Part shown: positions 51,274 through 64,000 of the stretch, piece after piece | How the letters are laid out: every line of letters starts with the position of its first letter | Numbering within the stretch: the stretch's first letter is position 1 | Assembly (NCBI GenBank): GCA_963676835.2 | Contig: CAXXFF010000001.1 | Coordinates: 768,001-832,000, forward strand | Direction: 5' to 3' | Length of the DNA stretch: 64,000 bases | From: Marispirochaeta sp. | GTDB lineage: Bacteria; Spirochaetota; Spirochaetia; JC444; Marispirochaetaceae | Made by a program: the position numbers and the translations under genes | Notes under the pieces: generated by a model | Seen by the model: the letters and a program-made list of their open reading frames with translations, nothing else | Database searches by the model: none | What the model was told of the DNA's origin: nothing

Positions 51274-51528
51274 TCAGGCGATAATATGCGGCGCCTCAAC
51301 GATGCTTTGACTGTACAGAATTTCAGGATCAATATCCGCTCCATTAGGCCATTCAATGGAATCAAATTTCACAGACACCGCATTAAAGATTGATAAATCC
51401 CGCAACTCAGAAAAAATGCCGGTATTGAGATAAGTTGACATATCAAAATAACGTTTTTCATCATTTTCAAATGTGAGCAGTAATTTATAATCCGGTAAAG
51501 GCCTGACAGCTTTAACTCCTAAATACAT
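51274..51528 (-). CDS. DUF2442 protein (putative antitoxin)
   Basis: DYKLLLTFEN...IEWPNGADIDPE.LY. Confidence 0.85.
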   Translation of the reverse strand: MYLGVKAVRPLPDYKLLLTFENDEKRYFDMSTYLNTGIFSELRDLSIFNAVSVKFDSIEWPNGADIDPEILYSQSIVEAPHIIA

Positions 51529-51538
51529 CAAAGACTCC

Positions 51539-51805
51539 TTATCTTAGTGGATCAATCTTGAATGGTATTTCACCATTTTGAGCAAGCTTCCAATCAGCCA
51601 ATAGTTCATCTTTATGCAGTTCTGCCCATGCTTCTATTAGTTTTATCTGCTTTCCCGGGATATTTCCCTCAGTCATTTCACAGATATTGATATCAAAAAT
51701 TCCCTTAAAATCCTGATAATAAGCGTGAAAATGAGGGGGATTATGTTCTTTTTTCCCGAGATACATGCGAATGACAATTCCGAAAAACATCGACAACGTA
51801 GGCAT
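51539..51805 (-). CDS. DUF4160 protein (putative toxin)
   Basis: MPTLSMFFGIVIRMY..EHNPPHFHAYY...WAELHKDELLADW. Confidence 0.88.
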   Translation of the reverse strand: MPTLSMFFGIVIRMYLGKKEHNPPHFHAYYQDFKGIFDINICEMTEGNIPGKQIKLIEAWAELHKDELLADWKLAQNGEIPFKIDPLR

Positions 51806-51970
51806 AGTTACAGTATATCAGCACAGTTACTCTAAGTCTATTTTGCAGTCCGTTTTGTAATTTTTTCCCATTAAAAGGTACGGTCGTCTTCATAGAAGAG
51901 CTTGTCGATGGAGAAGCATGCCAAGTTGTAGACGTAAGCTTCTATGTGCAGATTAGAGGAGTTTTTAAGT

Positions 51971-52184
51971 TAACAACGGATATATGGCGTAGCAATTCGC
52001 CGACAGGCGACATTGCAGCCCCAGGCTTTGCGAAGCAAAACGCAGGGGGTAAAGGTTTGGGACCACACAGATAATAGGGGTTTCGCAAAGGGGGTAAGGC
52101 ACGGATTTTTCTTCTTTAAAAATAAAAAATCCGTGAACGGCTTCTTCGCCCCTGCCCCATTTTATCCGCGGACATCCGTTGTTA
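51971..52184. repeat. 214-bp imperfect palindromic element with AAC...GTT ends (attC-like)
   Basis: TAACAACGGAT (51971) and ATCCGTTGTTA (52174-52184) are perfect inverted repeats; internal hairpins TCGCC-GACA-GGCGA and CACGGATTTTT...AAAAATCCGTG. Confidence 0.5.
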
Positions 52185-52330
52185 CCCCAACTCCTTTAAT
52201 CCGTAGGCTGTCCAAGGTGCCGGTAGGCTATCTCATCAACTTTCGCAACACTAAGGTCGAGTGGCGCAGGTTCATTGTTACGGGGGAGTAATTCCCCCTT
52301 TTTAGTCGTCCTAAAAATGAAATAATGAAA

Positions 52331-52627
52331 CTAAGCCCCTTTGCTTAACTCTTCCAGCATTTCCTTTCTCAGCAGATTATTCATTAATGTCTGGTACCCT
52401 TTTCCATGACTTTTGAGCCATAACAGTACATCTGCATCAATCCTTGCGGTAATCTGTTTCTTCCTCGGCTTGTATTCATCAGAAAACAGTACAGCCTTTC
52501 TGAAGTCGTCCTCATTCCATTCGGGGATATCGCTGGTATCAATTTCAGAATCCGGTAGCTCTGAGAGTTTTTTGAGTCGTTCTTTCTGTTCATCCGTAAG
52601 AGGGCTAAACCCACGTACCTTCTTCAT
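52331..52627 (-). CDS. brnA: BrnA-family antitoxin
   Basis: IDTSDIPE...KKQITARIDADVL.W.K..GKGYQT.MN.LLR. Confidence 0.88.
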   Translation of the reverse strand: MKKVRGFSPLTDEQKERLKKLSELPDSEIDTSDIPEWNEDDFRKAVLFSDEYKPRKKQITARIDADVLLWLKSHGKGYQTLMNNLLRKEMLEELSKGA

Positions 52628-52892
52628 AGCTTCTTCTCTCCTGCCGAGTCGCTTTTCTGGCCGATATTATTCGTATAACAGGCTCATCACCGTGCAATCG
52701 CAAGGTATAAACAGCCAGAATAATAAGCTCCTCACCTACATGGCCCAGTATTTGCCAGCGGTGCTCCAATTCGTGATAATCCTGTCGGGTAACCGCAAGC
52801 GGATCGGCAAATACATACCGTGCATCTTCAAATGAAATATGGTGCCGCTGTAAGTTTAACTTGTTTTTATTCTCATCCCATTCGAAGAACAT
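52605..52892 (-). CDS. brnT: BrnT-family toxin
   Basis: FEWDENKN..N...H.ISFE.A..VF.DP...RIISARKA. Confidence 0.9.
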   Translation of the reverse strand: MFFEWDENKNKLNLQRHHISFEDARYVFADPLAVTRQDYHELEHRWQILGHVGEELIILAVYTLRLHGDEPVIRIISARKATRQERRSYEEGTWV

Positions 52893-53044: not shown

Positions 53045-53398
53045 TCATTCGGCGGGAGATGAATTTTTCCGACTTTTACAGATTCGTCGTACATTAAAAT
53101 AGTTAATAAGACTTAGAACAAACAAGCAGGAAAATACCCCGAAAATCAAACCAAGGCTTACTCGCAGCCATGCTGGTAAAAACAGAAAATTCGGATAGAA
53201 AATTTTAGCGCAGATATAGAATGTTAGAAATAAAAGTCCATAAACATATAAATAATATCTTAGTCTCTTTTTTTTCTTAAACAAATTCTCATAGTTCAGC
53301 AGCTTCATTTGTGCTGCTGCATTTTTACCTTTTATCTGGATGAGAATAACTAAAAACACCAGAAAAAGTGTATAGACTACTGTTATTGCTATATGCAT
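53045..53398 (-). CDS. Small AT-rich 3-TM hypothetical protein (117 aa)
   Basis: GGAG RBS before ATG 53398; three hydrophobic segments. Confidence 0.6.
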   Translation of the reverse strand: MHIAITVVYTLFLVFLVILIQIKGKNAAAQMKLLNYENLFKKKKRLRYYLYVYGLLFLTFYICAKIFYPNFLFLPAWLRVSLGLIFGVFSCLFVLSLINYFNVRRICKSRKNSSPAE

Positions 53399-53460: not shown

Positions 53461-53534
53461 GGTTTTGCCTGGAAGTTGGAGTTTTCGCGGACACGGATAT
53501 GGGTGTTTAATTTGACGGTAGTTTCTTTGAAGAG
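53461..53534 (-). repeat. Eroded fragment of the constant SH3b-coding arm (copy 1)
   Basis: GTTTTGCCTGGAAGTTGGAGTTTTCGCGGACACGGATATGGGTGT...GTTTCTTTGAAGAG aligns to 55722-55797. Confidence 0.8.
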
Positions 53535-53537
53535 TAC

Positions 53538-53756
53538 TTAAATCTGGTCAGATTCCTGGAGCTTTAAAAGCTCTTTTGCCAGAGAATCTACAGATTCATC
53601 TTTTAAAAGATCATTCCTCTCTTTTGTATAATCACCGTAGCCGCGACTGTACTGATGTAAAAACTCTATAGTCACATCAGCACCAAGTTCTCTGGTCAGA
53701 ATTTCAAGACCAACCATTCTAATTTTTTCAGGACTCATTCCTTGTGTATTTATCAT
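53538..53756 (-). CDS. Putative antitoxin paired with PIN toxin
   Basis: GLEILTRELG....EFL.....G.GDYTKER; ATGA overlap with the toxin stop. Confidence 0.75.
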   Translation of the reverse strand: MINTQGMSPEKIRMVGLEILTRELGADVTIEFLHQYSRGYGDYTKERNDLLKDESVDSLAKELLKLQESDQI

Positions 53757-54198
53757 GTAATCACCACCTGCAGCCATACAACAGGTTTTTCAACTCTTAT
53801 CTCAAGTATATTCTCATGCTTTCTGCCTTTATTTACAAGCTTAGCATCAACTGTTAAAAAAACATCAACCTTCAGTGTCTCCGCACAGGCAAGATGCAGG
53901 GCATCCATTGCACCGAAACCTAATGTTTCAAGTTCTTTTGCCCTGCTGATTTCCTTTTGTGTTGCGAAGATTTTCTCAGAAAGCCCTTCAAGAAAAGCAA
54001 GGACGCTATCTCTTTTTCTATATCCGGTGTCCTGTTTATTTCAAGATTCAAGACACTGCTCCCAACCCAGCAAACGTCACCTTGCCGTAAATGCTTCAAG
54101 TTAAACCGTATTGCTTCTGACTCAAGATGGATGCGTTCCTGCTCCTGATCATCAAAAGGTCTGTTTAAACAGCATACATCCAGATATACCCTTTTCAT
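53753..54198 (-). pseudogene. PIN-domain toxin, frameshifted
   Basis: RVYLDVCCLNRPFDDQ.Q.RI.LE.EA in one frame, MDALHLACAE...DVFLTVD in another; adding one A to the A5 run (54013-54017) gives a 148-aa ORF. Confidence 0.8.
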
Positions 54199-54262
54199 CT
54201 CTACAATCATTTTACAGTTGAACTTTCCTATTCGTCTATCTTCTTAACAGTCACTACTCCGG

Positions 54263-54596
54263 CGGCCTGCGACTCCGCTCAGGCACCTCTGGTACGTCGC
54301 GGGGTGAGGGGTCCGACTCCTCATACACCGTAACCACCCCGTCGCCGTTATACCGCAGCTCTCCCTGCTCCTCGGCCAGGTCAAGGAAGGCACCGAAGCA
54401 CCAGCCGGAGAGGCCGTCGGATTCCCGGACTATGCGGTAGCTTTTTCCCGGTTCTCACCGGAGGTGTTCGCCCCAGGGGTCGATGGTCTCTTGGGGGCCG
54501 GAACGGTCAAGGACTTTTACCGTATCGCCCTATTCCAGGAAGCCCATGTGTTTTGCCTGGAGGTTGGGGTTTTCGCGGACACGGAAGTGGGTGTCT
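54263..54596 (-). pseudogene. Degenerate constant arm (copy 2): SH3b-coding 3' end plus downstream repeat
   Basis: Aligns to 55452-55767; internal TAG at 54530-54532, terminal stop changed to TCG, 23-nt replacement at 54440-54462, no 5' part. Confidence 0.85.
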
Positions 54597-54611
54597 ATGA
54601 ATTATAGAAAT

Positions 54612-55016
54612 TCAGGTATTTTCCAGAAGTGAAAGAAACTCGCTGTAATTTACGATTCGGATGTTTTCGAAGGGATCAAGTACAAGCAAATCTTCATCTC
54701 CGGAGACAATACAGTCAGCTTCAGCACTCAAAGCCATTTCCAGCAGATAGTTATCTTTTTTATCCCGACAGGCATCCGTATGCGCTGCAACTTTCACCCA
54801 CTCCGCCTTGCGGCTTAAATAATGCAGAAGGAACCTTTTCTTTTCCGGGGTAAAATATTTTTCCAATTTCGGACGTTCCAGTACTTCAAACAATTCTTCA
54901 AGTTGTTCATCACAGGTGAGTACCGTAACTGTGTTTTCGATTTTCCCAACAAGATTATCAAGACTTTTTCCAATCAGGAAGCTGATCCAGATATTAGTGT
55001 CGATAACGACCCGCAT
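54612..55016 (-). CDS. PIN-family toxin (TIGR00305-like)
   Basis: MRVVIDTNIWIS...CRDKKDNYLLE.A....ADCIVSGDEDLL.L. Confidence 0.88.
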   Translation of the reverse strand: MRVVIDTNIWISFLIGKSLDNLVGKIENTVTVLTCDEQLEELFEVLERPKLEKYFTPEKKRFLLHYLSRKAEWVKVAAHTDACRDKKDNYLLEMALSAEADCIVSGDEDLLVLDPFENIRIVNYSEFLSLLENT

Positions 55017-55221
55017 AATACCTTTTTTCACGTACAGCTTCGACTTCAGTAGTTATTTCGTCCATCGACAGGGGAACATCTTCCATTTCATCGCGGAATT
55101 TCAGGAACTCCCCCTGCAAGGTCTGGCTATCCAGATAGCGGGCTAATTGCGCTTTTTCATCTGTTCCAAGTTGCTCCACAAGAGCTTTTACCTGGTTATA
55201 GGTCAGCTGTAACTGGGCCAT
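54994..55221 (-). CDS. Putative antitoxin
   Basis: 75 aa, LSMDEITTEVEAVR; overlaps PIN gene; upstream ATGACG-17 nt-TATAAT and GAGGT. Confidence 0.75.
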   Translation of the reverse strand: MAQLQLTYNQVKALVEQLGTDEKAQLARYLDSQTLQGEFLKFRDEMEDVPLSMDEITTEVEAVREKRYYAGRYRH

Positions 55222-55332
55222 TTTCTACTACCTCACCGTTTCATTATACTTCAATTTACTGTTAACGTCATCTTTCAGGAGAGCTCTTAGAAGTTAAAGA
55301 GCTCTCATTAAGTCCGCTGCCTGCGACTCCGG

Positions 55333-55474
55333 CTGCCTTCGACTACGCTCAGGCACCACATCTACAGGGTGATTGCTGGAGGGACTGCCTTCGACTTCGC
55401 TGCCTTCGACTACGCTCAGGCACCGCGGCATAAAAGTGAATGCTGGCGGGACTGCCTTCGACTCCGCTCAGGCA
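55333..55474. repeat. Cluster of REP-like 23-mers CTGCCTTCGACT(A/C)CGCTCAGGCA
   Basis: Full copies at 55333, 55400, 55452; partial copy at 55385; TGCCT/AGGCA self-complementary ends. Confidence 0.85.
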
Positions 55475-55503
55475 TCGCTGGTATGACGCGGGGGTGAGGG
55501 CCC

Positions 55504-56787
55504 CTACTCCTCATACACCGTAACCATCCCATCCCCTTTATACCGCAGCTCACCCTGCTCCTCGGCCAGGTTTAGAAAGGCTCCGAAGCACCAGCCGGAG
55601 AGGCTGTCGGATTCCCGGACTATGCGGTACCAGGGGTGTTCGCCCCAGGGGTCGATGGTCTCTTTGGGGCCGGAGCGGTCAAGGACTTTTACCGTTTCGC
55701 CCTGTTCCAGGAAGCCCATGTGTTTTGCCTGGAGGTTAGGGTTTTCGCGGACACGGATGTGGGTGTCGGTTACTTTGGCGGTGGTTTCTTTGAAGAGGAG
55801 GTTGTGGGTCATTAGCCAGTCGCGGAGGGGGGTTGCGTCGACGAGGTAGGCTTTATTGTCTATGTCGCAGAGGCCCCATTTAAAGTTGGGAGAAAATCGT
55901 ATAGTTCTTGGTTTGCCCTGCACTGATATGTTCAGCTTCTTTGCTTGTTCCGGATGACCTATTGGCTGCATCCAGTAGTTTCCGTCAGGATATGATCCAC
56001 ATGGAACCAGTATATGTTCATTGCCAACAAACTGACCGCCGAAGTCTTCGTCTCCACTATCTCCATCTTCCGGATTTGGATGGCCATAACCGATTTCTTC
56101 TTTCTCATCCTCAATCCGGTAGAGAATAAAATCACGGTCCTCAAGCTTATAATCATCTGGTCGAGATGGTCTTTCATCAGTATCAATCAGCACGTATTCT
56201 TTGTCTGGGGATATTGCATGAATTATCCCATGAATAGGCAATCGACGGTTGGTCTCTGTGGCCAGGTTCAAACGGCTTATTGCACTGGGTCCGGAGTCAA
56301 GAGGCTTTAACTCATTCATCTGCAGGTAGCCCTCGTCGCTCTGGTAGTAGAAAAATGATCTCATCGGCCAGTACGTTAGATCCTGGTTCTCCTGTATGAA
56401 ACGATCAACAAAGGGATAGGCTTCAGATTCACTGGTTTTGAGATCATATACAACATTAGGCAAATTGCCTTCCTGTAGTGTAATAATTTTATTCTCCCAT
56501 GGCCCAAGAATCCTTGTGAAATGCACAAGTCCGAGCGAGCGGGAAGCCATAGATTCAAGGTCAATTATTCTGCAGTCAGTATCATTCATCCTTGGAGCGA
56601 ATCTAATAATTGCATATTTATTTGTTAATACCGAAGCATAAGTATCTGAACCGACTCTCTGATTCACCGATAATGATATTGCTTCCGGCTGCGCTACAGC
56701 AACTATCACAGGCATACAGAAAAAGGCTACAACCAGAAGTATCCGAATAGCAGTTCTTTTAACATTATCTTTACTAGAATTCCTCAT
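55504..56787 (-). CDS. Exported protein, variable N-terminus plus C-terminal SH3b domain (candidate immunity protein 1, 427 aa)
   Basis: GGAGG RBS, signal peptide ending AVA-Q; beta-rich body; SH3b IRVRENPNL...LEQGETVKVL...WYRI.....SGWCFGAFL. Confidence 0.85.
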   Translation of the reverse strand: MRNSSKDNVKRTAIRILLVVAFFCMPVIVAVAQPEAISLSVNQRVGSDTYASVLTNKYAIIRFAPRMNDTDCRIIDLESMASRSLGLVHFTRILGPWENKIITLQEGNLPNVVYDLKTSESEAYPFVDRFIQENQDLTYWPMRSFFYYQSDEGYLQMNELKPLDSGPSAISRLNLATETNRRLPIHGIIHAISPDKEYVLIDTDERPSRPDDYKLEDRDFILYRIEDEKEEIGYGHPNPEDGDSGDEDFGGQFVGNEHILVPCGSYPDGNYWMQPIGHPEQAKKLNISVQGKPRTIRFSPNFKWGLCDIDNKAYLVDATPLRDWLMTHNLLFKETTAKVTDTHIRVRENPNLQAKHMGFLEQGETVKVLDRSGPKETIDPWGEHPWYRIVRESDSLSGWCFGAFLNLAEEQGELRYKGDGMVTVYEE

Positions 56788-56853
56788 AATTGTGCGGATC
56801 CTCCCCTCATCTCTTCCATAATACAACTTCGAATTTTCACCGACACGTTCTCC

Positions 56854-58556
56854 CTATTCCTCAAAGAAACGCTGAATATCCCAGCGGTCCTCTTTGAAAA
56901 TATCTGTAACAGTAATATCCTTCCCACTCAAAGGTATTTGTTCTTCAAGTTTATCATGAAAGTAGATCCAGCTATGCGCAGAAGGGTAACTATCGCTGAT
57001 TGGAAGCCATGGAGAACCGGGCGCTGATACATACGTATTAATCCATGCATCGCTTGTAACTATCTCCGGGTCACCATTAACTATTTCATAGTTATCCCTG
57101 ACAGTATCAAAACTTGCCCAATCACCAACAATTCTTGACCACCAGCCGTAGGTATTCCGGGTAATTACCGGTCCATCAGTTTCTTCATTATACTTCTGCA
57201 TAAAAAGAGATTCATCGAAGCAGGAGAGGGGATCTACTCTCTGCCATATAGTATTCCCATCGCCATCCAGGAACGTCTCGTATACCTCCAGATGAATATG
57301 GGCACCGGTAGAGACTACACCCACATTGCCGATATAACCAAGCCGGTCTCCTGCTTCAACCCGGATGAAGCTTGCATCCGTAATCTCAGAAGCCTCAATC
57401 CCACTTATCGGCTGCAGGGTATCGCCGGGAGTCCCAAGCATGGACCCGGTAGCTGCACCGTATTGCCCGGTATATGGAAAATTCGTTTGAGGTGCACCTT
57501 CATCTCTGTTTCCCAGATGACAAAAGAGATATACCCTGCCCTGCTTGGGATCATCCGGCCTGGTTACAAGCGCACCGATCCAGCCATAGGTATGAGAACT
57601 ATAGCCATAGAGTTCTCCGGTTTTGATACCTGAACCTGAGAAGACAGGTAAATTCTGTGGGGCATCCCATTCTATAGACCGCCACAAATAGAATATCCCA
57701 TCCTCCGGTGCCAGGAAAACGGCATTCTTCGTATCACCATCAATAGCAGAGTCCCCAGGCTCAGCTGCAGGATCATTCCAGTAGCTTAGAGCATCTCCCG
57801 CCCCTATTGCCGGTACAGAATCAAAAACTCCAACCCTGGAAAGGTCCACACCATAATGGTAGCGTAAAAGAATCCATTATTACTGGTATTTAAATTACGC
57901 CAACCCGTAAGCTGGGTGACCTTCGCATGATGCAGAGAAGGAAAGAGTGACTGAGGAGTTCTGTACGATAGGGAGGTTGAGGGCAGTTCCCGGTGGTAGT
58001 AATTTCCTTTATTTTCAATATCAGAAACAGATATTTCTCCACCAATAAGCTTGTCACGCATAAGGTCAACAGCTGTTTCAAGGTCACTTTCCTCACTATA
58101 GCCGGACGGGATCTCAACAACTTTCCGCGGAACCTCCGTCGCCGGCGGATAATAACTCCTCAACTTAACCTTATACTCATCCAGCAACTCCCACCCCGGC
58201 TTCTCCCCCGCCGCGCTCAGCTCCCCGGTCGCACTCTTCTTCAATAACCTTCGGGCATGGTATTTACCCGGTTCCAGGCTGAAGCCGCCGAAGCCCCCAG
58301 CGGGGTTGCCCCAGGTTGCAAGGCTTACCTGACGCAGGCTGCGGTTAACGGATATGAGGTAGATGCTGTTCATGTAGTCCTGTGAGGTGGCGCTGCTGTC
58401 GAGGCCGGCAAAGTTAGTGCGGACCACCACGCCGAGATGGGTTTCGCCGGTGTCGTTGGTACGCATAATGAGGTCCCCCGGGCGGATTTGGGAGAGGGAG
58501 GGGATTATGGTGGTTATGCGTTCGAGTTCCGGCGATACTGAGACTGTACTTTTCAT
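56854..58556 (-). pseudogene. 5'-truncated, frameshifted NlpC/P60-remnant plus M23 peptidase gene (candidate toxin 1)
   Basis: IRPGDLIMR...HLGVVV at N-terminus; M23 HYGVD, VFLAPEDG, HL, VEAGDRLGYIGNVG..TGAHIHLEV; one extra base near 57866-57869 joins both ORFs into 567 aa. Confidence 0.75.
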
Positions 58557-58767
58557 GATGAGAAAATGGTATCATGCCTTTTCTATTACTTCCAGTATAA
58601 GCAGTTACAATCTTCCAAAACAGGTATGGCCATACAGTTTTAAAATAGCAATACGATCGACCTGTATGGGTAAAGCAACAATAAGCGGGAACTGCATGAT
58701 TCTACCGGGAATCTCTCAACGCATATCCGTCTTGCTCCCGCTTTCTATAGTGCAGTATACTAAAGGC

Positions 58768-59655
58768 ATGAATAGAAAACGTCCTTTAAACCCAATGGAT
58801 GACATCTTTGTCAAATATCTTCTGGGAACAGAAGAGAACAAAGATCTGCTTATAAGCTTTATCAACGCCGTATTGGACGAAAAAGGGTATGACCTCGTTT
58901 TGGATGTTGAGATTAAAAATCCCTTCAATCCGGCCAAGATTATTGAGTCCAAGTTTTCTGTTCTGGATATTAAGGCAAAAGACACCAAAGGCAGGATGAT
59001 CAACATAGAGGTACAGGTAAGCTCAGACCCCTATTTTGCATCGCGAAGTCTCTACTACTGGGCAAAGATTTACAGCGATCAACTGGAATCGGGGGATCAA
59101 TACAGGGAGCTGAATCAGACAATATGCATAAACCTTTTGTCGTTTAATCTCTTTGAAACCCAGGACAGTTTCCACAGCTGTTTTCAGATAACAGAAGTTG
59201 GAAAACCGGAAAATATACTTACAGAAGATCTTCAGATTCATTTTCTCGAAATAGAAAAACTGAAATCGCACCTGGAAAAACATGAGCCAAGGGATACCCT
59301 GGAAGGCTGGTGTTATTACTTCTTAAATGAAGGCCTGATCGAGGAGGACAAGATGCCCGTTTTACTGAAAAAGGACAAGATCTTTAACAAAGCCGGCTCA
59401 ATATACAGAAACTTTACCGCCGATGAAGAAAAAATGGAGCTTATTGAAGCCCGTGAAAAATGGCTTAAGGATTACAATTCCAAAATAGAGTCTGTACGTC
59501 AGGAAGGACGTCAGGAAGGTCGTCAGGAAGGTCAGCAAGAAGGACGTCAACAGGGCCATATGGAAGATGCCAGAAACCTGAAGCAGCTGGGGGTTGATCT
59601 GACTATTATTTCCAAGGCAACCGGGTTAGCCCTTGATGTTATTGAGAAATTGTAA
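58768..59655 (+). CDS. Rpn-family recombination-promoting nuclease / PD-(D/E)XK nuclease
   Basis: NP..D..VKYLLG, LISFINAVL, LDIKA...INIEVQ, RSLYYWAKIY, IHFLEI.K, (RQEG)n tail; TATACT 6 nt before ATG 58768. Confidence 0.9.
   Translation: MNRKRPLNPMDDIFVKYLLGTEENKDLLISFINAVLDEKGYDLVLDVEIKNPFNPAKIIESKFSVLDIKAKDTKGRMINIEVQVSSDPYFASRSLYYWAKIYSDQLESGDQYRELNQTICINLLSFNLFETQDSFHSCFQITEVGKPENILTEDLQIHFLEIEKLKSHLEKHEPRDTLEGWCYYFLNEGLIEEDKMPVLLKKDKIFNKAGSIYRNFTADEEKMELIEAREKWLKDYNSKIESVRQEGRQEGRQEGQQEGRQQGHMEDARNLKQLGVDLTIISKATGLALDVIEKL
59497..59555 (+). repeat. 12-bp coding tandem repeat (RQEG)
   Basis: CGTCAGGAAGG(A/T) x3 plus two degenerate units. Confidence 0.85.
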
Positions 59656-59672
59656 GGTTTAGTTGATTAGGA

Positions 59673-59743
59673 CTGCCTTCGACTCCGCTCAGGCACCGCG
59701 TCATAAAGGTGAATGCGGACCTGCCTTCGACTCCGCTCAGGCA
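59673..59743. repeat. Two REP-like 23-mers CTGCCTTCGACTCCGCTCAGGCA
   Basis: Copies at 59673 and 59721, between convergent rpn and SH3b gene. Confidence 0.85.
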
Positions 59744-60770
59744 GCGCTGGTATGACGCGGGGTGAGGGGCCCTACTCCTCATACACCGTAACCATCCCCT
59801 CCCCGTTATACCGCAGCTCACCCTGCTCCTCGGCCAGGTCAAGAAACGCTCCGAAGCACCAGCCGGAGAGGCCGTCGGATTCCCGGACTATGCGGTACCA
59901 GGGGTGTTCGCCCCAGGGGTCGATGGTCTCTTTGGGGCCGGAGCGGTCAAGGACTTTTACCGTTTCGCCCTGTTCCAGGAAGCCCATGTGTTTTGCCTGG
60001 AGGTTGGGGTTTTCGCGGACACGGATGTGGGTGTCGGTTACTTTGGCGGTGGTTTCTTTGAATAGGAGATTGTGGGTCATTAGCCAGTTGCGGAGGGGGG
60101 TTGAATCTACCAGATATGGAATATGGTCAACTTCGCACAGGGCCCGGGTAAAATCGGGGGAGAACCTGAAATTTGTCTGCTTGCCTTTAGCTGTAAGATT
60201 AAGCTTGACTGCATGTTCAGGATCACCGATATACTGCAAGAAATAATTTTTAGGATTGGTTTTTAAATAATCTTCCTTAGGAGTAAATGGTAGTAATACA
60301 TTCTCATTGCCGACAAAATGCCCTCCATAGTCAATATCACCAGGATCTCCACCACCCATGAAAGGCACACCATACCCTTGTACAATACTTCCTGTAGCAA
60401 TCTCATAAAGTATAAAATCTCTATCTTCAAGCTTATAAGATTCAAAGTTCTCACTTTGCTCGTCCTTATCAATCAGAAGATACTTCTTGTCTGGGGATAT
60501 AGCATGAATTACACCCGTAACAGGAAATGTAGATTCTTCGAAGGTAGAAAAATCCAAAACTCCAATTTTACTTGTGTACACCGGCCGAAAACGGACACCC
60601 ATTCCGGAGGAAAGCGGACAGTGATTCCGGGCAAAAACGGACACCTGTTCCGGCCGAAAACGGACAGTTTTTCCGGAGCGCCGGAATTGCTTTAACCTGA
60701 AATAAGAAATCCTCGATTAACACGAGCACTCTCGTCACAATAGCAAAACTACTATTTGACGGAGTACAGA

Positions 60771-62318
60771 ATGTCGAGAGCGAGGATTCATGTGAAACAC
60801 ATGCGTAAACTGCTTGCGCTCACGTACGAGAGCAAGCTGGGACTTCGGGATGTATCCCAACTGACCGGAGTATCTAAAACCACAGTCAGCGAATATCTGG
60901 TGCGATTCCGCCGCACCGGGATCAGCTATGCAGCAAGCCAAAAGCTTACCGATGAGCAGCTGCTTGGCCTGTTCGAAGAGAAAAAGCAGGAAGAAAGTGA
61001 GCAGTATACACAACTAACGACACTGTTCCCCGAGTACGCCAAACGGCTGAAACAGCGGGGGATGACGAAGCAGTTCCTATGGAAGGAATACCGTAGAAAG
61101 TATCCAAACGGATATAGATACAGTCAGTTCTGTCACCACTTTACGGTGTTTCTGGACTGCGGTGAGGTGACGATGCGTCAGCCCCACGAGCCTGGAGATA
61201 TGGCATATCTCGACTATGCCGGAGAAACGTTCCCTTACTATCCTGATGGAGATGAGCAGCGGGCACAAATATTCGTTGCGGTACTCGGAGCAAGTCAGCT
61301 GGCCTATGTTGAAGCAAGTGAGAGCCAGAAACAAGAGGCCTTTGTCCGCTCCACAGAACGGGCTCTGAGGTACTTCGGCGGGGTTCCGCGAGCTCTCGTC
61401 CCGGATAACCTGAAGGCGGCCGTGCTCAGTGCGAGTAAATATGAGCCGGAGCTTAATCCGTTGTTCGATGATTTTGCCGATTACTACCGGACGACGATAA
61501 TCCCCGCCAGGGCCTATAAACCGAAAGACAAATCCCTGGCGGAGAATGCCGTCAAGTTAACCTATCAGCGGATATTCGCCCCGCTGTACGGCAAGAGGTT
61601 CCATTCGTTGGCTGAGCTCAACCAGGCCATCGCAGAACTTCTTGAAGAACACAATACCCGGAAACTGACAAAGCTGCAAATCTCACGGCGTCAGTTGTTT
61701 GAAGAGATCGAACGGTCTGCGCTGAAGACGCTGCCGGGCGAACCGTATCCAATGAAATACTTCGAAACTCACAAGGTTGCACCGGACTATCACTTTATCC
61801 TGTCAAAAGATAAGCACTACTACTCTGTTCCCTGGCAGCTGAAGGGAGAACAGGTCAAAGTGATCTTTGATGAGCGAATTATAGCGGTATATCACAAGAA
61901 TGTACGCGTAGCCCAGCACCGCCGGAGCAGAAAGAAAGGACAATACTCCACACAGTCCGCACACATGCCCAGGCACCATCAGTTTGTTGAATCATGGTCG
62001 GCGGAGAAGTTTACCACCTGGGCTCAGTCGATTGGAGAAGAGACGTTCCTGGTGATTTCACATCTATTAAACAGCAAGCCACATGAGCAGCAGGCGTACA
62101 AATCCTGCCTTGGTGTGCTGAACCTGGCAAAGGATGCCGGATCACACCGGCTGAACTGGGCCTGCCGACGTGCGTTGAACTACTCGAGAATCAGTTATCG
62201 GGATGTTCGTGCATATCTGGATGAAATCATGCGACAAGAAAAGGATGAACAGCAGAACAAACAGGTGTTTCTCTTCGCCGATCACAAGAACCTGCGGGAT
62301 TCTGCAATCTACAAATGA
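60771..62318 (+). CDS. istA: IS21-family transposase IstA
   Basis: N-terminal HTH, YSQFC, DYAG, FGGVP..LVPDNLK, PKDK..AENAV, YYSVP. Confidence 0.95.
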   Translation: MSRARIHVKHMRKLLALTYESKLGLRDVSQLTGVSKTTVSEYLVRFRRTGISYAASQKLTDEQLLGLFEEKKQEESEQYTQLTTLFPEYAKRLKQRGMTKQFLWKEYRRKYPNGYRYSQFCHHFTVFLDCGEVTMRQPHEPGDMAYLDYAGETFPYYPDGDEQRAQIFVAVLGASQLAYVEASESQKQEAFVRSTERALRYFGGVPRALVPDNLKAAVLSASKYEPELNPLFDDFADYYRTTIIPARAYKPKDKSLAENAVKLTYQRIFAPLYGKRFHSLAELNQAIAELLEEHNTRKLTKLQISRRQLFEEIERSALKTLPGEPYPMKYFETHKVAPDYHFILSKDKHYYSVPWQLKGEQVKVIFDERIIAVYHKNVRVAQHRRSRKKGQYSTQSAHMPRHHQFVESWSAEKFTTWAQSIGEETFLVISHLLNSKPHEQQAYKSCLGVLNLAKDAGSHRLNWACRRALNYSRISYRDVRAYLDEIMRQEKDEQQNKQVFLFADHKNLRDSAIYK

Positions 62319-62326
62319 GGTAACCG

Positions 62327-63067
62327 ATGAATAATAATCAGGCGACAATCAACAAGATGACCGAGATGCGTCTCCACGGAATGGTACAGGCCTTCCGTAC
62401 ACTGCAGGAGACCGGACGCCATATGGATCTTACAACCGATGAGGTTATCAGCTACCTTGTCGACTCAGAATGGGATGAGAAACACAATCGCCGACTGGCG
62501 CGCCTTGCCAATGCGGCCCGTTTCCGCTATAAGGCAGCGATTGAAGATATCGACTATACCTTCGACCGGAATCTGGACAAAAACCAGATCTTAAGACTTG
62601 CAGCCTGCTCCTGGATATCCCGGGGGCAGGACCTGCTCATCACGGGTCCGACCGGAGGAGGAAAAAGTTTTCTTGGATCGGCTTTCGGACATCAGGCATG
62701 TCAGTATGGGTATACCGTCGCTTACTTTTCCACAACGCGTTTATTCAATGAAATAGCGGCGGCAAGGGATGATGGAACCTACCTGAAGCACTTGTCACGC
62801 ATAATGAAAAACAAGCTGGTCATTATCGATGACTTCGGTCTGGAACCGCTGGAGCATACTGCACGGATGGCATTTCTTGAAATCCTTGAAGATCGACACC
62901 GGAGAAAATCTACGATAGTGATCGCCCAACAGCCGGTAGAAAACTGGCACAGCATTATCGGTGACCCCACGATTGCCGATGCCATAATGGACCGTCTTGC
63001 CTTTCATTCTCATAGAATTGTAATAACCGGGGACTCGGTAAGGAGGAAACTCTATGCTGTAGATTGA
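62327..63067 (+). CDS. istB: IS21-family ATPase IstB
   Basis: GPTGGGKS, IIDDFG, TIADAIMDRL, GDSVRR. Confidence 0.95.
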   Translation: MNNNQATINKMTEMRLHGMVQAFRTLQETGRHMDLTTDEVISYLVDSEWDEKHNRRLARLANAARFRYKAAIEDIDYTFDRNLDKNQILRLAACSWISRGQDLLITGPTGGGKSFLGSAFGHQACQYGYTVAYFSTTRLFNEIAAARDDGTYLKHLSRIMKNKLVIIDDFGLEPLEHTARMAFLEILEDRHRRKSTIVIAQQPVENWHSIIGDPTIADAIMDRLAFHSHRIVITGDSVRRKLYAVD

Positions 63068-63675
63068 CGCAAAACGGACACCTGATCATACTGAAGACGA
63101 GGATTTACTTCCTTCAGGCAGCTGTCCGTTTTCCGCCGGAATCACTGTCCGAAATCATCGGAATACACATACTAGGTAGAACATCTTCACTACTAATTAG
63201 AAACTGCTTTTGTATATAGCCGATATCATTCTGGTAATAGAATGTTCTGTGAATAACCTGCTTGATGGGACTATCGGAGGGCAAGGAGCTGATATCACGG
63301 GTTTCGGTGATTTCTCCTGTTTGGTAATCATAGGTAAGAAGTTTTTTCTTGTTATCTGATAGAATCAGATAAGTTTGCTCAAGAGGGCCAAGCCCCCATT
63401 TATAGCCAGTAAAAGGTATAATACTTAAGCTATTGTCTAAGAAATTTACTCTTGAGAAAGAACGTGGGGGATTCTGCCCACTTCCAAATGATCCAAAAAA
63501 ATCTTTTTGCGTATTCGAATATCTTAAAATATCAATATTCCCTGTATCTTTATACCCAGTAATTTTCTTTGACATCTGTGAGATTATAGAAAAATCAAAT
63601 TCCTGACTGAACAACGAAAAAGGGAAAAGCAACATTATTAAAGTTATAATTCCAATTGTATTTCGAAGTATTTTA

Positions 63676-64000
63676 TCATTCTGCATAATTTATCTCCCGC
63701 AGGCTATCCCATCTGTCGGATCTGAAAATATTGTCCATAGTTAAACTCTTATTATCCTCAATATTGACTTCATCAATACGCTGTTGAATGGCTTCCCTGA
63801 AGTATATCCAGGTGTGCTGCATACTGTATTGCTCAATCGGCTCAAGCCAGCCTCGTGTATAATCCGCACCTCCACCAAGGCTGTTTATCAGGATTCCAGC
63901 ATTGGATTCAGACTGAAAAAGCGACTTACACGCATACTCATCTTCATCATCCAATAAGCGTGCCCACCATCCGTATAATGGGTATGCATCAGACTGGCTC
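63676..64000 (-). CDS. 3' end of a paralog of the M23 gene (candidate toxin 2); begins beyond window
   Basis: Frame open to the edge: SQSDAYPLYGWWARLL...WLEPIEQYSMQHTWIYF...IFRSDRWD; same motifs end 56854-57849. Confidence 0.8.
   Translation of the reverse strand, partial: SQSDAYPLYGWWARLLDDEDEYACKSLFQSESNAGILINSLGGGADYTRGWLEPIEQYSMQHTWIYFREAIQQRIDEVNIEDNKSLTMDNIFRSDRWDSLREINYAE

Follow-up and report, generated by a model that had tools for sequence, protein, structure and literature searches.

Decaying two-gene cassettes in a Marispirochaeta genome belong to a probable polymorphic toxin/immunity system of Spirochaetia, a carrier family whose C-terminal tips are interchangeable

Polymorphic toxins of the Sec and type II secretion system (T2SS) type, as described in the accessible text of PMC3482391, combine a constant N-terminus bearing a signal peptide with a variable C-terminal toxin, a linked immunity gene and standalone tip cassettes. 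The same text lists Tox-NlpC/P60 toxins for Bacteroidetes and deltaproteobacteria, with no immunity family. The orphan modules of contact-dependent inhibition (CDI) systems lie behind a full-length gene and are generally devoid of translation signals, their immunity genes being expressible (available part of PMC3150448). Two further systems are described in the parts available of their sources: in type VI secretion (T6SS), the hydrolase Tse1 is inhibited by Tsi1, a partial propeller (PMC3391265), and the X-Tfe effectors of type IV secretion (T4SS) include M23 peptidases, with immunity proteins that are exported for periplasmic targets and signal-less for a nuclease (PMC6536674). Here we analysed a stretch of 64,000 nucleotides from Marispirochaeta sp. 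(the window; positions 768001-832000 of contig C1, in a genome of 4.43 Mb assembled in four contigs). A first-pass annotation made from the letters alone had proposed there an array of two-gene units, with a gene A ending in an M23 peptidase and a gene B ending in an SH3b domain, and had read them as toxin and antidote. We find that the window is a decaying outpost of a carrier family of Spirochaetia: two of its A-B cassettes, both in decay, and two B remnants lie there. This family, with its interchangeable C-terminal tips, is probably a polymorphic toxin/immunity system: it has the genomic hallmarks of one, and it is a member of neither the CDI nor the Rhs group.

Gene A corresponds to the C-terminal third of signal-peptide proteins of about 1,200-1,900 amino acids (aa) found in Spirochaetia, hereafter the carriers. 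Homologues of 1,439-1,733 aa match A solely in their last third, which bears out the earlier proposal that A is the 5'-truncated tip of a polymorphic carrier family. The short A begins midway through a papain-like domain, the anchor domain. Ser replaces the catalytic Cys of this domain in 55 of 81 sequences and the His is retained in 46 of 81, so that the domain is probably inactive. A search of 1.84 billion representatives with an A profile returned 220 matches at E<=0.001, and 112 of the best 150 bear the anchor domain. The tips of these 112 carriers are of the NlpC/P60-CHAP type in 49 cases (assigned by Cys/His-type motifs), M23 in 27 (both HxxxD and HxH being present in 26), non-hydrolase in five and truncated in 31. 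Among the non-hydrolase tips, three assignments are leads only: a TNT-like tip (Pfam E 0.008, under the cut-off), a REase-like assignment (look-alike clusters hold Tox-REase-9 in 12% and VRR_NUC in 17% of members) and an Ntox44-like one (13-14% of members, score 0.89-0.90); one further non-hydrolase tip is of no assigned type. A crude hydrophobicity test detected a hydrophobic N-terminal window in 50 of the 57 carriers of at least 1,150 aa and in none of the three short A proteins tested. The N-terminal body of the carriers matched no Pfam or NCBIfam family, and the carriers scanned gave no match to RHS, FilH repeats or CdiA families and had neither VENN nor an RHS-core junction; the database names of family members are generic. 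The M23 domain read in gene A at first pass holds as well: in A1 it scores under the Pfam cut-off (E 0.012), though its HxxxD, xH and HxH motifs are aligned, and the model of an intact paralogue, A4 (pLDDT 62 on average and better in the M23 part), matches M23/LytM structures (best E 8e-5, TM-scores low).

The gene downstream of the tip depends on the tip class. A B-class gene follows the M23 tip in all 15 loci with downstream DNA, from nine genomes or records; 13 of these loci fed the B alignments, and the two out of sample, G679 and G537, were detected at E 1.6e-9 and 9.8e-16, so that the predicted linkage of A and B extends to genomes outside the B-profile set. In 17 of 18 cases, the gene that follows an NlpC tip has what looks by eye like a signal peptide and escapes the B-body profile; these partners often end in F5/8C, SH3 or YARHG. 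The REase-like carrier (L046) precedes two small open reading frames (ORFs) without signal peptide. L057 was left out as a duplicate of L051, and L044, where the contig ends, was left out of the linkage count.

In gene B, the SH3b domain and the signal peptide noted initially were both recovered. SH3_3 scored above the Pfam cut-off in the two B genes of the window (B1, E 5.6e-10; B2, E 3.8e-11), and 13 of 13 B N-termini examined passed the hydrophobicity test and are signal peptide-like; no lipobox was seen in B. The B4 protein was modelled (pLDDT 78) as an all-beta propeller followed by SH3b, with six-bladed propellers as best matches (Foldseek E ~1e-7; VIA Z 15.9, root-mean-square deviation 3.9, 273 aligned residues) and no functional pointer among them, and a PDB sequence search with the B body retrieved nothing significant. 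In one genome with two carriers, the first 300 aligned residues are 88-100% identical, the tips 56%, the B bodies 24-25% and the SH3b domains 78%.

Complete systems were found in other genomes. In G509, a giant gene is followed by a 1,418-aa carrier, a partner, a 1,191-aa truncated carrier, a partner, tip fragments, further partners and an Rpn-like gene; a second locus of this genome reads carrier, partner, tip, partner. Standalone tip-partner cassettes thus stand behind a full-length gene at two G509 loci, with identities of 28-67% among tips and 22-76% among partners (one tip fragment of 147 aa, cut by an insertion sequence (IS), was left out of the counts). A homologous giant gene of up to more than 5,000 aa, with Ig, TIG, PQQ-propeller and OmpL47-type domains, precedes the carrier at nine loci; it is not upstream at L052, at G353 and at the second G509 locus. 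The layout of our window is mirrored in G721, where a divergent Rpn gene lies ahead of a truncated carrier. Within one genome, two signal-peptide genes (L079:7312-7992 and L080:4451-5008) adjoin carrier or giant genes and contain what we take to be a phage tail-collar-like domain.

The family is patchily distributed. The A tip profile matched 17 of 401 genomes of the class, including two weak M23-only matches (G624 was checked and is unrelated), and a phylum-wide search with a long profile matched 2 of 401. The B body was found in seven of the 401 class genomes, six of which also have A. Matches in G018, where they lie among phage-like genes, and in G043 were left out of these counts.

Two further A-B pairs, A3/B3 and A4/B4, both intact and with an Rpn gene between them, form a second locus at C1:555636-562737, 270 kb away, in which the A3 tip spans C1:561106-562737 and the A4 tip C1:556939-558612. 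Each cassette consists of a 5' anchor of ~440 bp, a core of ~2.2 kb and a 3' anchor of ~345 bp. The 5' anchor is 91-96% identical among most cassettes (82-90% for a divergent copy in the relative G002) and the 3' anchor 94-98%, whereas the core gives no blastn match between paralogues; the GC content is 0.56-0.60 in the anchors and 0.41-0.46 in the core. Such conserved anchors around a non-matching core indicate that the recurrence of A and B is more than chance. A block of 2,048 bp spanning an A head, Rpn, repeats and a B tail (window 58125-60172) is 95.5% identical to C1:558181-560216. An 18-nt repeat follows the B genes, and its 13 genomic copies (<=1 mismatch) are all confined to the two cassette loci; neither a clean single hairpin in this repeat nor an Rfam match at E<=0.1 was found. 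We also observed that the N-half of B6 of G002 (L019:17194-18462) is 73% identical to that of B3, its C-half being about equally near B1 and B3, which suggests a recombination point within the propeller of B6. Rpn-type nuclease genes flank arrays in three genomes (L125:243-1001, L130:3708-4571 and window 58768-59655), with a possible part in the shuffling of cassettes.

A look for a full-length gene A just beyond the window had been suggested at first pass. None lies there or elsewhere in the assembly: tblastn with four long carriers and an N-terminal profile of 16 carriers gave a best E of 0.43, leave-one-out controls of the profile scoring between E 1e-26 and 1e-149. The cassettes of the window therefore do not form an orphan array trailing a master gene of their own. 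The four contigs break at IS copies, and a carrier in an assembly gap is possible; the closed relative G002, a single contig, has C-terminal matches alone, in the same short form. Neither the giant upstream gene nor NlpC-type tips were found in this genome.

The short A genes may themselves be expressed, without a signal peptide, as suggested by a shared ATG, an extended -10-like motif and purifying selection. All five A copies with a full start use the same ATG, preceded nine bases upstream by TGnTAnnnT, a pattern found at 0.06% of ATGs genome-wide; the five upstream flanks share ancestry and amount to three distinct variants. In related sequencing runs, homology breaks at the same base. There is no obvious ribosome-binding site at the shared start, and a sigma-70 two-box scan returned 11 sites, against 11.7 expected, none of them at the A start. 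The ratio of nonsynonymous to synonymous substitution rates (dN/dS) is 0.15-0.37 in the anchors; for orthologous A cores, it is 0.23 and 0.26.

Compared with the described systems, the carriers share the architecture of the Sec-type polymorphic toxins of PMC3482391, some of which, according to the accessible text, also have an inactive papain-like domain. They differ in the lack of detected RHS or FilH, in an N-terminal body outside known families, in the position of the degenerate papain-like domain just before the tip and in tips that are mostly wall hydrolases. With the CDI and Rhs orphan modules, as far as covered by the available part of PMC3150448, our loci have in common arrays of truncated tips and partners, broken by IS elements and, here presumably, exchanged at a conserved junction; unlike CDI orphans, the short A has a fixed ATG with a promoter-like motif and no master gene in the assembly, and the cassettes have a second conserved anchor at the 3' end of the partner. 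Tse1/Tsi1 and X-Tfe/X-Tfi, in the portions available, pair a peptidoglycan hydrolase with an adjacent periplasmic inhibitor, as A and B would; B, encoded downstream, is a predicted full propeller fused to SH3b, and the carriers have their own signal peptide. The S8-PTS of Gram-positive bacteria (PMC9424270, available part) resembles the complete loci in joining a signal-peptide polymorphic toxin to a third conserved gene, which there encodes an S8 peptidase and here a giant Ig/TIG/propeller protein, in another phylum and with other tips. PMC13340143, in its available part, describes another system. We found no description of the carrier or A-B family in the literature searched, of which the PMC3482391 supplement, which might list members, was not part, and no pairing of M23 with a beta-propeller immunity protein in the context of interbacterial peptidoglycan attack.

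We propose that in complete systems the carrier would exit by Sec and be displayed or delivered with the Ig/TIG/propeller surface protein of 3,000-6,000 aa encoded upstream. The M23 tip would cut the peptidoglycan of a rival, and the propeller-SH3b protein B, predicted to be exported, would neutralise this tip at the owner's wall. The partner would share the site of action of its tip: those of wall hydrolases would be exported, and those of the nuclease-like tip would stay in the cytoplasm. SH3b binds peptidoglycan; the variable propeller would bind the cognate tip, and SH3b would hold B on the wall. Tip and partner body would move together when cassettes recombine between their conserved 5' and 3' anchors. 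This lineage would have lost the carrier body and giant gene, and the most likely role of its cassettes is that of an immunity bank with its own transcription and of a reservoir for recombination. The ~545-aa A, having no signal peptide, may come from a near-leaderless transcript, its targets being reachable only by lysis or another non-Sec route. A more speculative extension, which we regard as rather doubtful, holds that the giant protein and the carrier form an undescribed spirochaete toxin-delivery apparatus, for wall hydrolases as well as nucleases and NADases acting in the cytoplasm, with wall-tethered propeller antidotes, and that this lineage has shrunk it to self-promoting two-anchor cassettes whose signal-less M23 protein would be a lysis-released bacteriocin.

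Several observations weigh against a toxin/immunity system. Wall-hydrolase types make up 76 of the 81 complete tips, which housekeeping roles could also explain, and the non-hydrolase assignments are sub-threshold, with known neighbours for one alone. Tip class is mostly vertical: the poorly resolved carrier tree (2 of 16 branches starred) needs four changes for three tip classes and three for M23, and a single M23 clade is not rejected (p-AU 0.147). On the partner side, five of the eight NlpC partners tested have no detectable relation to the others, the NlpC carrier L079 has no partner gene, and B-class genes can stand by themselves (G729) or in tandem (G512:C426). The co-phylogeny of tips and partners expected at first pass was borderline for the N-half of B (6 of 120 permutations inside the genus and 42 of 720 beyond it) and absent for its C-half; with close kin kept apart, the signal is weak, and linkage confounds it. 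The N-half, which follows A most closely, should carry the specificity. A role as immunity bank leaves the purifying selection on a signal-less A unaccounted for. A predicted complex of the A4 tip, B4 and zinc (median 0.14, the mark being 0.32) was used neither for nor against. As to the array originally envisaged, its truncated tips, A-B linkage and exported-type B stand, and its own master gene and exclusively wall-directed tips do not: most tips are wall hydrolases, and the family has non-hydrolase tips too.

The same facts could be read as self-directed wall remodelling on behalf of a giant surface or secretion apparatus, with B as scaffold, activator or regulator and the tandem copies as hot-spot duplications. 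The giant genes ahead of full carriers at nine loci, the T2SS-like cluster adjoining A-B in four genomes, and the predominance of wall hydrolases among largely vertical tip classes would all suit this explanation, which we nevertheless consider unlikely. Nuclease-, NADase- and Ntox44-like tips are unfit for wall remodelling, the flanks change far more slowly than tip and B body, the G509 arrays give each truncated tip a different partner, the family is restricted to a few genomes of its class, and the present genome retains A-B without the giant gene. As for secretion, all four genus relatives tested have gspD, and in G447, a complete genome, it is unlinked; a T2SS dedicated to A-B was rejected, and the adjacency is treated as a hot spot. 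Still less probable is that the carriers are bacteriolytic feeding enzymes secreted onto dead or prey walls, B being a substrate-binding helper and no antidote: signal peptides on full carriers and B would fit, as would partners ending in SH3b, F5/8C or YARHG, domains able to bind substrate, yet the partner family shifts with the tip class, the signal peptide is lost with the nuclease-like tip, and B-class genes are retained beside a broken A (unit 1) and in G729, where no A was found. That gene A is the lysin of a decayed prophage, the refuting outcome named in the first-pass annotation, is largely refuted. In its favour, the M23 motif gives short matches to PHROG endolysins (28-49 aa, E ~2e-5); against it, no relative was found in viral contigs (0 of 22 candidate stretches) or in 50,697 phage records, none of the nine neighbouring genes scanned is structural, packaging or holin, and the full carriers bear signal peptides and follow giant surface genes.

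If the polymorphic toxin/immunity reading is true, Spirochaetia have a polymorphic toxin family of their own, with a new carrier and a candidate giant delivery protein. B would represent a new antidote design, a variable propeller with a constant wall-binding tail, and would inhibit M23 endopeptidases as a protein specific to its pair. With four natural tip/partner variants in a single genome, of which two are intact, a comparison of cognate and swapped pairs is straightforward, and the intact pairs (C1:555-563 kb) and the full G509 system are the places for such tests.

Within the window, both two-gene units and both eroded B tails lie where the initial reading had placed them (Table 1), and neither A-B pair is intact. 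The frame of A1 is shifted by one base near 57871, ahead of the M23 motifs. This frameshift is present in the best-matching sequencing run and absent from two related runs that keep the frame. An assembly error was rejected, the best-matching run reading the identical sequence; as this run may be the source sample, it is not an independent confirmation. A2 lacks the shared ATG, the promoter-like motif and the first ~50 codons, and the IS21 element in B2 is flanked by a 4-bp target duplication. The two eroded SH3b tails are 86-88% identical to intact B ends. The GC content is lower in the cassette region (0.38-0.53) than in the remaining window (~0.50), and BrnTA, DUF4160/DUF2442 and VapB15/PIN modules, the Rpn gene and the IS21 element are interleaved with the cassettes.

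Table 1. Features of the cassette region, in window coordinates.
Feature	Position	Strand	Remarks
Gene A2, 3' end (M23 tip tail)	63676-64000	-	Runs past the window to C1:833136
Gene B2 (whole)	63686-59772	-	Start overlaps the A2 end
B2, N-terminal half	63170-63686	-	Signal peptide-like start and first propeller blades
IS21-family element splitting B2	60573-63169	+	istA 60756-62318, istB 62327-63067
B2, C-terminal half	59772-60572	-	Propeller blades and SH3b
18-nt post-B repeat, two copies	59676-59741	-	
Rpn (PDDEXK_2) nuclease gene	58768-59655	+	Divergent from A1; between the two units
Extended -10-like motif TGnTAnnnT	58566-58574	-	Nine bases before the A1 ATG; putative function
Gene A1	56854-58556	-	Half of a degenerate papain-like domain, M23 peptidase domain, tail; no signal peptide
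A1 5' anchor	58121-58560	-	
Gene B1, intact	55504-56787	-	Signal peptide-like start, beta-propeller body, SH3b; fold from the model of paralogue B4
B1 3' anchor	~55500-55845	-	
Post-B repeat, three copies	55336-55472	-	
VapB15/PIN toxin-antitoxin pair	54612-55221	-	Between cassette remnants
Eroded B tail	54262-54595	-	SH3b with stops and an insertion; one repeat copy
Shortest eroded B tail	53462-53534	-	

Upstream of A2 lie a DUF2442-like gene, a Sir2-like gene and then a T2SS-like cluster (C1:834791-844800, window 66791 onward, + strand) with secretin and GspE/F/G-like genes, divergent from the cassettes. The flank of its secretin gene can carry A-B or Rhs genes, depending on the genome: two relatives of the genus that lack A-B have Rhs-type genes of ~2,000 aa next to gspD, recognised by eye and from their similarity to Rhs-core ORFs, and G003 has more Rhs-like fragments. 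Other Rhs-type genes (L076:4738-12796 and L077:8079-15899) have a Tat-like N-terminus and stand beside genes that look by eye tatC/tatB-like and radical-SAM-like; they are possible Tat-exported Rhs toxins. The present genome also contains an open frame of 3,357 aa that includes an Rhs core, followed by an orphan Rhs core (C3:671556-686710), and a cassette-like gene row at C3:9000-29100 that ends in a tyrosine-recombinase-like gene and includes two exported proteins with an N-terminal SH3, unrelated to the B body.

Nine near-identical copies of the IS21 element occur in the genome and two contigs start in or beside one, so that assembly gaps coincide with this element. On the far side of the cassettes, a broken toxin gene across two frames, presumably PIN-like by eye, lies with a 79-aa partner at window 53538-54210 (- strand); the pieces of this gene that were scanned had no Pfam, NCBIfam or PHROG match. 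Immediately after the shortest B remnant, a hydrophobic ORF of 117 aa (window 53045-53398, - strand) could be an unrelated orphan immunity-like gene. Further along, DUF4160/DUF2442 and BrnT/BrnA modules are found at window 51274-52892 (- strand), and similar modules flank the G002 array (L020).

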